Of a stretch of DNA of 64,000 bases, positions 24,658 to 30,826 are shown piece after piece. Source of the stretch: Escherichia coli. GTDB taxonomy: Bacteria > Pseudomonadota > Gammaproteobacteria > Enterobacterales > Enterobacteriaceae. Where the stretch lies: assembly GCF_003334315.1 (NCBI RefSeq), contig NZ_QOWR01000004.1; one strand, 5' to 3'. The translations under genes were made by a program, and so were the position numbers. A model generated the notes under the pieces. It was not told the DNA's origin. It ran no database searches and worked only from the letters and a program-made list of their open reading frames with translations. Positions within the stretch are counted from its first letter, which is position 1. Each line of letters starts with the position of its first letter.

Positions 24658-27333
24658 TTAAGCGGATTTTTTCGCTTTTTTCTCAGCTTTAGCCGGAGCA
24701 GCTTCTTTCTTCGCTGCAGTTTCACCTTCTACATAATCACGACCGTAGTAGGTATCCAGCAGAATCTGTTTCAGCTCGGAGATCAGCGGGTAACGCGGGT
24801 TAGCGCCGGTGCACTGGTCATCGAATGCATCTTCAGACAGTTTATCCACGTTCGCCAGGAAGTCTGCTTCCTGAACGCCAGCTTCACGGATAGATTTCGG
24901 AATACCCAGTTCAGCTTTCAGCGTTTCCAGCCATGCCAGCAGTTTCTCGATCTTAGCAGCAGTACGGTCGCCCGGTGCGCTCAGACCCAAGTGGTCGGCA
25001 ATTTCAGCATAACGACGGCGAGCCTGCGGACGGTCATACTGGCTGAATGCAGTCTGCTTGGTCGGGTTGTCGTTCGCATTGTAGCGAATAACGTTACAAA
25101 TCAGCAGGGCGTTTGCCAGACCGTGCGGAATATGGAACTGGGAACCCAGTTTGTGCGCCATTGAGTGACATACACCCAGGAAGGCGTTCGCAAACGCGAT
25201 ACCCGCGATAGTCGCTGCACTGTGAACACGTTCACGCGCTACCGGATTTTTAGACCCTTCGTGGTAGGACGCTGGCAGATATTCTTTCAGCAGTTTCAGT
25301 GCCTGCAGAGCCTGACCATCAGAGAACTCAGATGCCAGTACAGAAACATAAGCTTCCATGGCGTGAGTTACTGCGTCCAGACCACCGAAAGCACACAGGG
25401 ACTTCGGCATGTCCATAACCAGGTTGGCGTCGACAATCGCCATATCCGGAGTCAGCGCATAGTCTGCCAGCGGATATTTCTGACCAGTAGCGTCGTCAGT
25501 TACAACCGCAAACGGAGTGACTTCAGAACCTGTACCAGAAGTGGTGGTGACAGCGATCATTTTCGCTTTCACGCCCATTTTCGGGAACTTGTAGATACGT
25601 TTACGGATATCCATAAAGCGCAGCGCCAGCTCTTCGAAGTGAGTTTCCGGATGTTCGTACATAACCCACATGATCTTCGCGGCGTCCATCGGGGAACCAC
25701 CACCCAGCGCGATAATCACGTCTGGTTTGAAGGAGTTTGCCAGTTCTGCACCTTTACGAACGATGCTCAGGGTCGGGTCCGCTTCTACTTCGAAGAAGAC
25801 TTCAGTTTCAACGCCTGCTGCTTTCAGTACGGAAGTGATCTGATCAGCATAACCATTGTTGAACAGGAAGCGGTCAGTCACGATGAGCGCACGTTTGTGG
25901 CCATCAGTAATCACTTCATCCAGCGCGATTGGCAGGGAGCCACGGCGGAAGTAGATAGATTTCGGAAGTTTGTGCCACAACATGTTTTCAGCTCGCTTAG
26001 CAACGGTTTTCTTGTTGATCAGGTGTTTCGGACCAACGTTTTCAGAGATGGAGTTACCACCCCAAGAACCACAACCCAGAGTCAGGGAAGGTGCGAGTTT
26101 GAAGTTATACAGGTCACCGATACCACCCTGAGACGCTGGGGTGTTAATCAGGATACGCGCCGTTTTCATTTTCTGACCGAAGTAAGAAACGCGAGCCGGT
26201 TGGTTATCCTGGTCAGTGTACAGGCAAGAGGTATGACCGATACCGCCCATAGCAACCAGTTTCTCTGCTTTTTCTACCGCGTCTTCGAAATCTTTAGCGC
26301 GGTACATTGCCAGAGTCGGGGACAGTTTTTCATGTGCGAACGGTTCGCTTTCATCAACAACGGTCACTTCACCGATCAGAATCTTGGTGTTTTCTGGTAC
26401 AGAGAAGCCTGCCAGTTCAGCAATTTTATAGGCTGGCTGACCAACGATAGCCGCGTTCAGCGCACCGTTTTTCAGGATAACATCCTGAACAGCTTTCAGC
26501 TCTTTACCCTGCAACAGATAGCCGCCGTGGGTTGCAAAACGTTCACGTACAGCGTCATAAACAGAGTCAACAACAACAACAGACTGTTCAGAAGCACAGA
26601 TTACGCCGTTGTCGAAGGTTTTGGACATCAGTACAGATGCAACTGCACGTTTGATATCAGCAGTTTCATCGATAACAACTGGAGTGTTGCCCGCGCCTAC
26701 ACCGATAGCTGGTTTACCGGAGCTGTATGCGGCTTTAACCATGCCCGGACCACCAGTCGCGAGGATCAGGTTGATGTCTGGGTGGTGCATCAGTGCGTTA
26801 GACAGTTCAACAGAAGGTTGATCGATCCAGCCGATCAGATCTTTCGGAGCACCGGCAGCGATAGCAGCCTGCAGAACGATATCAGCCGCTTTGTTGGTGG
26901 CATCTTTTGCACGCGGGTGCGGGGAGAAGATAATGGCGTTACGGGTCTTCAGACTGATCAGCGATTTGAAGATAGCAGTTGAAGTCGGGTTAGTGGTCGG
27001 AACGATACCGCAAATAATACCGATTGGTTCAGCGATAGTGATGGTACCAAAAGTGTCGTCTTCAGACAGAACACCACAGGTTTTTTCATCTTTATAGGCG
27101 TTGTAGATATATTCAGAAGCAAAGTGGTTTTTGATCACTTTATCTTCGACGATACCCATGCCGGATTCGGCAACGGCCATTTTCGCGAGTGGGATTCGAG
27201 CATCTGCAGCAGCCAGAGCGGCGGCGCGGAAGATTTTGTCTACTTGCTCTTGAGTGAAACTGGCATATTCACGCTGGGCTTTTTTTACACGCTCTACGAG
27301 TGCGTTAAGTTCAGCGACATTAGTAACAGCCAT
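24658..27333 (-). CDS. adhE: bifunctional acetaldehyde-CoA / alcohol dehydrogenase
   Basis: 891-aa [45 protein letters not shown]... Confidence 0.97.
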
Positions 27334-27809
27334 AATGCTCTCCTGATAATGTTAAACTTTTTTAGTAAATCATCTGCTCGAATACGAGAGTATAGTCAGT
27401 GCGGTGATGATTTGCTTAACCTATGAAAATCAAAAGCTTACTCGCGCTCACACTCACTGTGATTTACTAAAAGAGTTTAAACATTAGAGTTATTATCTCT
27501 AATGCGTCACTTCCAGGTGGCGTAAGCAAGATTACTCACTTCTGGGTACTGATTACGTGATCCAAATCAAATTTTTGCAAAGCTGACACCTTTCAGCATC
27601 GCTTTTCGCCATTATAGCTAACAGTTAATAAATTGTAGTATGATTTGGTGGCTACATTAGCATGTTTTGCACAACTAGATAACAATAACGAATGATAGCA
27701 ATTTTAAGTAGTTAGGAGGTGAAAAATGCTGTCAAAAGGCGTATTGTCAGCGCGTCTTTTCAACCTTATTTATGGCTAACATTATCCGGCTTTTGCTTCG
27801 GAGCTAACC

Positions 27810-28457
27810 GTGATTCAGACCTTTTTTGATTTTCCCGTTTACTTCAAATTTTTCATCGGGTTATTTGCGCTGGTCAACCCGGTAGGGATTATTCCCGTCT
27901 TTATCAGCATGACCAGTTATCAGACAGCGGCAGCGCGAAACAAAACTAACCTTACAGCCAACCTGTCTGTGGCCATTATCTTGTGGATCTCGCTTTTTCT
28001 CGGCGACACGATTCTACAACTTTTTGGTATATCAATTGATTCGTTCCGTATCGCCGGGGGTATCCTGGTGGTGACAATAGCGATGTCGATGATCAGCGGC
28101 AAGCTTGGCGAGGATAAACAGAACAAGCAAGAAAAATCAGAAACCGCGGTACGTGAAAGCATTGGTGTGGTGCCACTGGCGTTGCCGTTGATGGCGGGGC
28201 CAGGGGCGATCAGTTCTACCATCGTCTGGGGTACGCGTTATCACAGCATTAGCTATCTGTTTGGTTTCTTTGTGGCTATTGCATTGTTCGCTTTATGTTG
28301 TTGGGGATTGTTCCGCATGGCACCGTGGCTGGTACGGGTTTTACGCCAGACCGGCATCAACGTGATTACGCGTATTATGGGGCTATTGCTGATGGCATTG
28401 GGGATTGAATTTATCGTTACTGGTATTAAGGGGATTTTCCCCGGCCTGCTTAATTAA
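27810..28457 (+). CDS. ychE: MarC-family inner membrane protein YchE
   Basis: 215-aa hydrophobic ORF from GTG 27810 (MIQTFFDFPVYFKFFIGLFALVNPVG...). Confidence 0.9.
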   Translation: MIQTFFDFPVYFKFFIGLFALVNPVGIIPVFISMTSYQTAAARNKTNLTANLSVAIILWISLFLGDTILQLFGISIDSFRIAGGILVVTIAMSMISGKLGEDKQNKQEKSETAVRESIGVVPLALPLMAGPGAISSTIVWGTRYHSISYLFGFFVAIALFALCCWGLFRMAPWLVRVLRQTGINVITRIMGLLLMALGIEFIVTGIKGIFPGLLN

Positions 28458-28470
28458 TTCCTTTCAAATG

Positions 28471-28500
28471 AAACGGAGCTGCCATGCTCCGTTTACTTCG
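28471..28500 (+). terminator. ychE terminator candidate
   Basis: AAACGGAGCTGCCATGCTCCGTTT hairpin then T-rich tract. Confidence 0.6.
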
Positions 28501-28614
28501 TCATTATTTTTACTTTGTTCCCGCGCAGTTATCAAAAGCAAAAGGAATAGGTAAAAATATTCTTCTCAAATTACAGTTAGTTATAAGGATTTCCTTAACT
28601 GCTTCTCCTCACCA

Positions 28615-28929
28615 TCATGTTATTTTCGCCACATCATAATCCTGGGCTTGCTGAAGAATAATTGAAATGATATTAGTAATTCCACTGCCTTTGGTAGAGG
28701 AAAGTGCTAAATAATAATCAATTGTTAAATTATTGTGCATTTCACTACTGGAACTGTAATCAGAAAAGATAGACATGCTTAGCCAATCTCTATTTGATTG
28801 AATTGAAAGATGTTTGTTAAGGCATGGATGCAAGCTATAGATTCTGATACGGTCAATAAAAGAGAATTGCTTAACAATTTTGCAAAATGTATTGGCGAGT
28901 AAGAACCGCATTTGGTACTTTCCGGGCAA
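28615..28929 (-). CDS. unassigned hypothetical ORF in AT-rich ychE-oppA spacer (possibly non-coding)
   Basis: 104 codons from TTG (98 from first ATG); no recognisable motif, weak SD-like GGAA; AT-rich context. Confidence 0.15.
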   Translation of the reverse strand: MPGKYQMRFLLANTFCKIVKQFSFIDRIRIYSLHPCLNKHLSIQSNRDWLSMSIFSDYSSSSEMHNNLTIDYYLALSSTKGSGITNIISIILQQAQDYDVAKIT

Positions 28930-29194
28930 CCGCCAGACGATTCTTTATTGGTAATGAGAATAATTAACAATTAAAGAGCGTCGCGAAAGAATAATGTGTC
29001 TCGACAGGGGAGACACAGTACGAATCGACATAAGGTGATCGTCTGAATCACCAGAATAAATAAAGTCGGTGATAGTAATACGTAACGATAAAGTAACCTG
29101 ACAGCAGAAAGTCTCCGAGCCTGTGCAGGGTCCCAATCCGGGATTACACATGCTGGTTAATACCAGTAATTATAATGAGGGAGTCCAAAAAACA

Positions 29195-30826
29195 ATGACC
29201 AACATCACCAAGAGAAGTTTAGTAGCAGCTGGCGTTCTGGCTGCGCTAATGGCAGGGAATGTCGCGCTGGCAGCTGATGTACCCGCAGGCGTCACACTGG
29301 CGGAAAAACAAACACTGGTACGTAACAATGGTTCAGAAGTTCAGTCATTAGATCCGCACAAAATTGAAGGTGTTCCGGAGTCTAATATCAGCCGAGACCT
29401 GTTTGAAGGCTTACTGGTCAGCGATCTTGACGGTCATCCAGCACCTGGCGTCGCTGAATCCTGGGATAATAAAGACGCGAAAGTCTGGACCTTCCATTTG
29501 CGTAAAGATGCGAAATGGTCTGATGGCACGCCAGTCACAGCACAAGACTTTGTGTATAGCTGGCAACGTTCTGTTGATCCGAACACTGCTTCTCCGTATG
29601 CCAGTTATCTGCAATATGGGCATATCGCCGGTATTGATGAAATTCTTGAAGGGAAAAAACCGATTACCGATCTCGGCGTGAAAGCTATTGATGATCACAC
29701 ATTAGAAGTCACCTTAAGTGAACCCGTTCCGTACTTCTATAAATTACTTGTTCACCCATCAACTTCACCGGTGCCAAAAGCCGCTATCGAGAAATTCGGC
29801 GAAAAATGGACCCAGCCTGGTAATATCGTCACCAACGGTGCCTATACCTTAAAAGATTGGGTCGTAAACGAACGAATCGTTCTTGAACGCAGCCCGACCT
29901 ACTGGAACAACGCGAAAACCGTTATTAACCAGGTAACCTATTTGCCTATTGCTTCTGAAGTTACCGATGTCAACCGCTACCGTAGTGGTGAAATCGACAT
30001 GACGTATAACAACATGCCGATCGAATTGTTCCAGAAGCTGAAAAAAGAGATCCCGGACGAAGTTCACGTTGATCCATACCTGTGCACTTACTATTACGAA
30101 ATTAACAACCAGAAACCGCCATTCAACGATGTGCGTGTGCGTACCGCACTGAAACTAGGTATGGACCGCGATATCATTGTTAATAAAGTGAAAGCGCAGG
30201 GCGACATGCCCGCCTATGGTTACACTCCACCGTATACTGATGGCGCAAAATTGACTCAGCCAGAATGGTTTGGCTGGAGCCAGGAAAAACGTAACGAAGA
30301 AGCGAAAAAACTGCTGGCTGAAGCGGGTTATACCGCAGACAAACCGTTGACCATCAACCTGCTGTATAACACCTCCGATCTGCATAAAAAGCTGGCGATT
30401 GCTGCCTCTTCATTGTGGAAGAAAAACATTGGTGTAAACGTCAAACTGGTTAACCAGGAGTGGAAAACGTTCCTCGACACCCGTCACCAGGGTACTTTTG
30501 ATGTGGCCCGTGCAGGCTGGTGTGCTGACTACAACGAACCAACTTCCTTCCTGAACACCATGCTTTCGAACAGCTCGATGAATACCGCGCATTATAAGAG
30601 CCCGGCCTTTGACAGCATTATGGCGGAAACGCTGAAAGTGACTGACGAGGCGCAGCGCACAGCTCTGTACACTAAAGCAGAACAACAGCTGGATAAGGAT
30701 TCGGCCATTGTTCCTGTTTATTACTACGTGAATGCGCGTCTGGTGAAACCGTGGGTTGGTGGCTATACCGGCAAAGATCCGCTGGATAATACCTATACCC
30801 GGAATATGTACATTGTGAAGCACTAA
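29195..30826 (+). CDS. oppA: periplasmic oligopeptide-binding protein
   Basis: 543 codons from ATG 29195 (MTNITKRSLVAAGVLAALMAGNVALAADVP..., signal peptide); track ORF 5'-extended. Confidence 0.96.
   Translation: MTNITKRSLVAAGVLAALMAGNVALAADVPAGVTLAEKQTLVRNNGSEVQSLDPHKIEGVPESNISRDLFEGLLVSDLDGHPAPGVAESWDNKDAKVWTFHLRKDAKWSDGTPVTAQDFVYSWQRSVDPNTASPYASYLQYGHIAGIDEILEGKKPITDLGVKAIDDHTLEVTLSEPVPYFYKLLVHPSTSPVPKAAIEKFGEKWTQPGNIVTNGAYTLKDWVVNERIVLERSPTYWNNAKTVINQVTYLPIASEVTDVNRYRSGEIDMTYNNMPIELFQKLKKEIPDEVHVDPYLCTYYYEINNQKPPFNDVRVRTALKLGMDRDIIVNKVKAQGDMPAYGYTPPYTDGAKLTQPEWFGWSQEKRNEEAKKLLAEAGYTADKPLTINLLYNTSDLHKKLAIAASSLWKKNIGVNVKLVNQEWKTFLDTRHQGTFDVARAGWCADYNEPTSFLNTMLSNSSMNTAHYKSPAFDSIMAETLKVTDEAQRTALYTKAEQQLDKDSAIVPVYYYVNARLVKPWVGGYTGKDPLDNTYTRNMYIVKH

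Follow-up and report, generated by a model that had tools for sequence, protein, structure and literature searches.

A 104-codon minus-strand reading frame in the ychE-oppA spacer of Escherichia coli is most likely a chance frame opposite the oppABCDF control region

Results

In the 64,000-nt stretch of E. coli DNA analyzed here (the window; contig NZ_QOWR01000004.1), the spacer between ychE and oppA is the published P1/P2 leader region of oppA, and the minus-strand open reading frame (ORF) inside it is an automatic-annotation artefact that is already present in databases; nothing about the region is new in kind. We consider it very probable (roughly 93%) that the interval is the control region of oppABCDF and that the 104-codon frame is a chance frame, open only in E. 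coli. Every one of our tests for coding constraint on the ORF failed. What we established here is where the promoter elements, the RNase E motif and the MicF site lie and how well they are conserved, as well as the lack of coding constraint on the ORF; the transcription starts, cleavage by RNase E, the action of MicF and GcvB, and repression by Lrp are taken from the literature.

According to the explanation that we favor, the interval serves to control oppABCDF both during and after transcription. Two sigma-70 extended -10 promoters, P1 and P2, fire towards oppA. P1 yields a leader of 511 nt, which in published work is cut by RNase E at +341, pairs with MicF at +372..+392 and is bound by Hfq and GcvB at the ribosome-binding site, while Lrp represses at the DNA level via two strong binding peaks. 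The apparently conserved ends of the ORF would then be promoter DNA that happens to be read in one frame or another, and its middle would be unconstrained sequence.

Layout of the locus and annotation of the frame

The features of the locus are listed in Table 1. A preliminary description of this DNA, made from the sequence alone, had reported an AT-rich spacer of 737 bp with a minus-strand ORF of 104 codons from TTG 28929 and a first ATG giving 98 aa. Both the limits of the spacer (ychE ends at 28457, the oppA ATG is at 29195) and those of the ORF (first ATG at 28911) proved to be exact. The AT-richness was confirmed as well: GC content is 0.373 for the spacer and 0.32-0.37 over 28400-29000, compared to about 0.47-0.51 in the flanking genes. 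Other genes of the window near the spacer are adhE, on the minus strand, and the 17-codon ychT (27726-27779, plus strand; MLSKGVLSARLFNLIYG) just 5' of ychE, which is present as YchT (b4771) in RefSeq and MG1655. The inverted repeat behind the ychE stop codon is probably the ychE terminator hairpin, judging from its sequence; it was read from the sequence directly and was not flagged in a terminator scan of the plus strand. An Rfam scan of 27300-29400 (E <= 1) returned a chance plant-microRNA match as its sole hit, and neither the oppA leader nor OppX has an Rfam family.

Table 1. Features of the ychE-oppA locus in window coordinates.
Feature	Position	Strand	Remarks
ychE	27810-28457	+	ends directly before the spacer
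ychE-oppA spacer	28458..29194		737 bp, 37% GC
Perfect 9-bp inverted repeat	28471..28494	+	AAACGGAGC-TGCCAT-GCTCCGTTT; 14 nt past the ychE stop
Reported ORF	28615..28929	-	104 codons from TTG, 98 from ATG 28911; stop 28615-28617
Conserved block 1	28620..28742	+	P1 upstream sequence, P1 and first ~59 nt of the P1 transcript
P1 -35 hexamer	28648..28653	+	TTGCTG; TTGNNN in 77/77 species; 17-nt spacer invariant
P1 extended -10	28668..28676	+	TGaTATTAG; TG(A/T)TATTAG in 76/77 species
oppA start P1 (+1)	28684	+	an A; derived from published oligo
oppA 5' leader from P1	28684..29194	+	511 nt; AUG at +512
Variable core	28743..28856	+	between blocks 1 and 2; unconserved middle of the ORF
Conserved block 2	28857..28925	+	P2 upstream sequence (AAAAGAGAA, TTAACAAATTTGCAAA) and P2 promoter
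P2 -35 hexamer	28892..28897	+	TTGGCG in 72/77 species, TTGGCA in the other 5; 18-nt spacer invariant
P2 extended -10	28913..28921	+	TGgTACTTT; TGnTACTTT in 69/77 species
oppA start P2 (+246)	28929	+	an A; coincides with the first base of the ORF TTG, opposite strand
Leader hairpin	28995..29017		TGTGTCTCGACAGGGGAGACACA; just 5' of the RNase E site; scores terminator-like on the minus strand
RNase E processing site (+341)	29024	+	ATCGAC(G/A) in 73/77 species
MicF pairing site (+372..+392)	29055..29075	+	120 nt upstream of the AUG; conserved across Enterobacteriaceae
oppA coding sequence	29195..30826	+	gene served by the leader; ATG at 29195

The ORF had also been called unassigned. This is correct for the curated MG1655 record, which has no gene there, but not for many RefSeq genomes, in which PGAP already lists a 'hypothetical protein' (WP_001211520, WP_001211521 and WP_001211524, with 53-aa versions WP_000051910 and WP_000021850). 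The PGAP calls differ among E. coli strains, being 98 aa, 53 aa or none, and the choice of the start is inconsistent (98 versus 53 aa) even in strains with an intact long frame. The idea that the 53-aa call represents a truncation was rejected, since the long frame is intact in KFu014, where the short call stems from the annotation itself; genuine truncation is confined to strains with a stop at codon 36. As had been noted, the product lacks a recognizable motif: the 98-aa protein gave no match in Pfam, NCBIfam or PHROGs. When 5.8 billion proteins were searched, all relatives were unnamed. The proposed search for homologues beyond the species yielded just proteins of E. coli/Shigella and one labelled Enterobacter hormaechei. 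Within the library of papers searched, none cited the accessions of the ORF protein.

Published oppA promoters map to both ends of the frame

The preliminary description had allowed that the spacer might simply be the long regulatory and 5'-UTR region of oppA, and had proposed mapping of the oppA transcription starts. Such a mapping exists. Primer extension placed oppA starts at P1 (+1) and P2 (+246) (Carrier et al. 2023, PMC9988348), and, as presented in that report, these starts agree with Igarashi 1997 and with genome-wide start-site mapping. P1 contributes more strongly to OppA-LacZ activity (PMC9988348). We carried the published starts over to the window by means of oligonucleotide EM4528, which was used for an RNA 'starting at +341', begins with ATCGACATAAGG and matches the window at 29024. 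P1 is therefore at 28684 and P2 at 28929. With these start sites, oppA leader transcripts cover most of the ORF on the opposite strand, so the regulatory alternative turned out to be the right one. The ORF spans P1 -70 to P2 +1; of the 511 nt of the oppA leader, the first 246 lie opposite to it.

For comparison between species, we used YchE as bait and fetched 80 loci, one genome per species (L004-L083). The window spacer and 76 spacers from these loci were aligned (77 in total). The spacer is syntenic in 77 Enterobacteriaceae species, with lengths mostly of 715-800 bp and similar AT content. Both P1 and P2 were found in 77/77 species, with their spacings kept, and at both promoters the distance from the end of the -10 hexamer to the start is 8 nt. 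A further promoter (TTAACA, 17 nt, AAGAAT; 28964-28992), predicted by Shimada 2014 as well as by our scan, was discarded because it matches no mapped start.

Conservation is restricted to two promoter blocks

In 71 non-Escherichia species, conservation within the ORF interval was restricted to 28620-28742 and 28857-28925. Block 1 showed a mean pairwise identity of 0.75 across 20 genera, compared to 0.56 after shuffling, and is what appears as a 'conserved C-terminus' of the ORF. Block 2, with a mean identity of 0.83 across 20 genera, appears as its 'conserved N-terminus'. The core between them is randomized between genera (pairwise identity 0.56 versus 0.53 shuffled). The two promoter blocks thus explain why tblastn 'finds' the N- and C-terminal parts of the ORF in every genus.

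The variable core has a nearly fixed length. Most of the 77 species have a core of 122-123 nt (sd 2.8), while the sd is 12-14 for three other variable segments of the spacer; in Escherichia it is 114 nt long, 9 nt shorter, which is about one helical turn. Such constancy hints that spacing or phasing is under constraint, and bridging by Lrp, with its two ChIP peaks, may be connected with this. The strict spacing of the blocks by 122-123 nt may be an architectural requirement such as Lrp bridging both sites. From the conserved sequences around the hexamers (P1 +14..+59; P2 -72..-38) we infer regulator sites, to which the two Lrp peaks plausibly correspond.

The frame is not conserved between species

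The frame of the ORF is broken in all five other Escherichia species, either by in-frame stops or by a 1-nt insertion, and the closest sister species, with 93.7% identical DNA, already has an in-frame stop. When reading began at the ATG-equivalent, E. coli itself was the only one of the 77 species to reach 90 open codons or more, the median being 29. Moreover, conservation in the 71 non-Escherichia species did not differ between the codon positions of the ORF frame (0.69, 0.66, 0.69; p = 0.70). As a control, the 3'-terminal 300 nt of ychE gave 0.89, 0.97 and 0.58 (p = 8e-33). GC content by codon position is also flat in the ORF (0.32, 0.35, 0.33), unlike in ychE, oppA and adhE.

Variation within E. 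coli

Polymorphism within the species was analyzed in 12 E. coli sequences over the 98-codon ATG frame. The ORF contained 15 SNP sites, distributed as 4/6/5 over codon positions 1/2/3 and thus without third-position bias. Six of the changes are synonymous and nine alter the product, the latter including a stop in O157:H7, which gives no sign of purifying selection. The ratios of non-synonymous to synonymous changes in the controls were 2:21 for ychE and 2:18 for oppA (Fisher p = 2e-4 versus the ORF). The synonymous share of 6/15 compares to 0.20 expected for random single changes (hand-calculated one-sided binomial P ~0.06), in a small sample that is confounded by promoter constraint on the sense strand.

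The nonsense allele at codon 36 was found in 439 of 5,426 complete E. coli genomes (~8%), including O157:H7 EDL933. At the corresponding position, 28805, 4,200 of the 5,426 genomes carry G (Ser), 361 carry A (Leu) and 439 carry T (stop). On the sense strand, 28805 is position +122 of the oppA P1 leader.

Taken together, the earlier suggestion of a silenced or unannotated small gene is contradicted by a frame that is unconserved in close relatives, by the E. coli nonsense allele and by substitutions that look neutral to the frame. As the ORF shows no mark of a gene, the 'hypothetical protein' is a candidate for removal rather than for study.

Length of the frame

The length of the ORF had been described as somewhat unexpected by chance. 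This holds for shuffled sequence: in 5,000 dinucleotide-preserving shuffles of the spacer, the longest ORF reached 104 codons or more in 2.3% of trials, and the longest ATG-ORF reached 98 codons or more in 1.9%, and shuffling inside blocks of 30-120 nt gave at least 104 codons in ~2.6%, all of these being nominal figures for a single spacer, uncorrected for the number of spacers per genome. It does not hold for the looser empirical null, since ORFs of 100 codons or more occur in 19 of the 77 orthologous spacers, where they vary in position, frame and strand. Indeed, the longest ORFs of the 77 orthologous spacers exceed the prediction from dinucleotide and block shuffles (median P ~0.2; 18-25% with P < 0.05) and are on the minus strand in 63/77 species, where related species are not independent observations. 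A purine-rich sense strand and clumped stop-rich A/T tracts are the likely cause of these long minus-strand ORFs. Because the longest ORFs are systematically beyond shuffle lengths, we prefer the orthologous spacers to shuffles as the null. The 64-kb window holds 91 ORFs of 98 codons or more, of which 33 lie wholly within a longer ORF and are thus likely spurious. Given the orthologous spacers and the nested ORFs, length alone is no evidence for a gene, and shuffle-based P-values are to be treated with caution for ORFs antisense to leaders.

Regulation of the oppA leader

Downstream of P2, the leader carries several published control elements. The former 'P3', at +341, is where RNase E processes the transcript (PMC9988348). 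MicF protects +372..+392, ~120 nt upstream of the AUG, and activates oppA, while GcvB and Hfq repress translation, acting at the ribosome-binding site (PMC9988348). Independently of the published mapping, prediction placed the best duplex of MicF with the leader at 29043-29077 (-24.8 kcal/mol). In a MicF pull-down, the ychE_oppA intergenic region was enriched 14-fold. RpoD holoenzyme and H-NS bind the ychE-oppA spacer (PMC3946193). Small ORFs on the plus strand of the leader (ATG 28667, 15 codons by eye; 28810-28902, 30 aa) were dismissed, as their frames are unconserved.

In published work, repression of oppA by Lrp is relieved by leucine, which also abolishes the two strong Lrp ChIP peaks at the promoter. 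When the window was scanned with the Lrp SELEX consensus, 107 matches were found compared to 89 +/- 11 expected, which is chance level.

Insertion elements and promoter alleles

In laboratory and collection strains, this spacer is a hot spot for insertion elements; about 83 of 5,424 genomes had no contiguous match. The MG1655 reference carries an IS5 at 28707-28710 (P1 +24..+27), which is inside the ORF and parts P1 from oppA. An ISSen4 in NCTC122 (28841-28847) is also inside the ORF. A DH5alpha assembly contains an IS1A at 29063-29071, within the MicF pairing site, and W3110 an IS2 at about 28676 (coordinate converted from PMC2072959).

Position 28676 also differs in K-12 (MG1655, PG20180058). 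Here a G>T change turns the P1 -10 hexamer TATTAG, invariant across genera, into TATTAT, which is nearer the consensus; going by the hexamer, P1 may have been strengthened in the K-12 lineage. E. coli B-DolR, a derivative of E. coli B, differs from the window at 28895 (P2 -35), at 28913 (the T of the P2 'TGn') and at 28646, two bases upstream of the P1 -35. Back-translated from amino-acid changes, the difference at 28895 would give TTGACG, nearer the consensus, and that at 28913 would abolish the TG.

Discussion

Signals for expression of the minus strand

Three other explanations were weighed. One, compatible with our main reading, is that the minus strand gives rise to a non-coding antisense RNA acting on P1 or the leader, in which case the ORF would be incidental. 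We regard this as unlikely. A promoter-like site on the minus strand (28739..28711; TGCACA, 17 nt, TATTAT) is found inside conserved block 1, but with 4 such matches compared to 3.0 +/- 1.9 in shuffles there is no excess. RNA-seq is reported to have revealed a small RNA, dependent on Hfq, that comes from between ychE and oppA (Raghavan 2011, as relayed in PMC6505713 and PMC4070566). More simply, it would be a fragment of the sense leader, similar to OppX, of the kind pulled down by MicF, and the region has no Rfam family.

The second alternative is a young, E. coli-specific de novo gene, whose frame would have opened recently in this lineage opposite the oppA leader and whose 98-aa product would serve the lineage in some role of its own. 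This we consider very improbable, and no better chances are given to the version in which the protein is translated in the majority of strains and was lost again in O157:H7 and in insertion-carrying K-12 stocks. What speaks for a de novo gene is that most E. coli genomes keep the frame open, as indicated by the Ser allele at the nonsense site, that it exceeds ~97% of the spacer shuffles, that PGAP predicts it, and that synonymous changes are in slight, non-significant excess. On the other hand, the stop allele is found in about one in twelve complete genomes, and the insertions in MG1655, NCTC122 and, by its published coordinate, W3110 disrupt the ORF in strains that are viable and in wide use. 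Neither the SNPs nor the GC content follow the codon positions, the nearest sister species has an in-frame stop, and orthologous spacers carry long ORFs elsewhere. A consensus scan of the minus strand, a method that cannot exclude expression, detected no sigma-70-like site 5' of the ORF; a terminator-like hairpin (29017..28995 on the minus strand) lies between oppA and the ORF start. A weak GGAAAG is located 6 nt 5' of the ORF ATG.

Finally, a horizontally acquired AT-rich gene or gene remnant silenced by H-NS, for which the AT-richness of the spacer and its flagging as H-NS-bound in genomic SELEX (PMC3946193) could be quoted, is refuted by the position of the spacer between ychE and oppA in 77/77 species with similar length and AT content, so that it is no island, and is further opposed by the identity of its conserved parts with promoter elements and by the lack of homologues outside E. 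coli/Shigella beyond the one labelled Enterobacter hormaechei, with none in phage families; we give it next to no credence.

Comparison with known systems

A chance frame opposite the oppABCDF control region, our main reading, can be set against four known kinds of system. Like proposed de novo or orphan antisense genes of E. coli, the ORF is taxonomically restricted, AT-rich and antisense to a transcribed region. Unlike them, it yielded no evidence of expression in this analysis and lacks a sign of purifying selection, and its frame is broken in O157:H7 by the stop at codon 36.

With spurious PGAP calls of 'hypothetical protein' in AT-rich intergenic DNA, the ORF shares a prediction based on length only and the lack of a domain, a name and a homologue beyond the species; we found no difference from such calls. 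The practical value of this result is in clean-up, as the 'hypothetical protein' opposite the oppA P1/P2 promoters and leader has been propagated through RefSeq E. coli genomes.

OppX of Salmonella is a MicF sponge RNA from the oppA 5' UTR, with forms of 410, 190 and 109 nt (Matera et al. 2022, as presented in PMC9988348). The leader is shared between the two systems, and the MicF site is conserved across Enterobacteriaceae. From the lengths, the 410-nt OppX-L would start at the P1 equivalent, so that its sense-strand sequence would extend into the ORF interval. The ORF itself, being encoded opposite, has no part in OppX function. E. coli differs from Salmonella in that no stable leader fragment was detected and MicF activates oppA instead of being sponged (PMC9988348).

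The closest match is the published P1/P2 region of E. coli oppABCDF itself. Its sequence is identical, and the distances of 245 nt from P1 to P2 and of 120 nt from the MicF site to the AUG fit. There is no difference in substance: the strain of the window is without the IS5 of MG1655 and has TATTAG compared to TATTAT in K-12. Exact window coordinates are now available for the published control elements of oppA, and both promoters and their spacings are conserved in 77 enterobacterial species.
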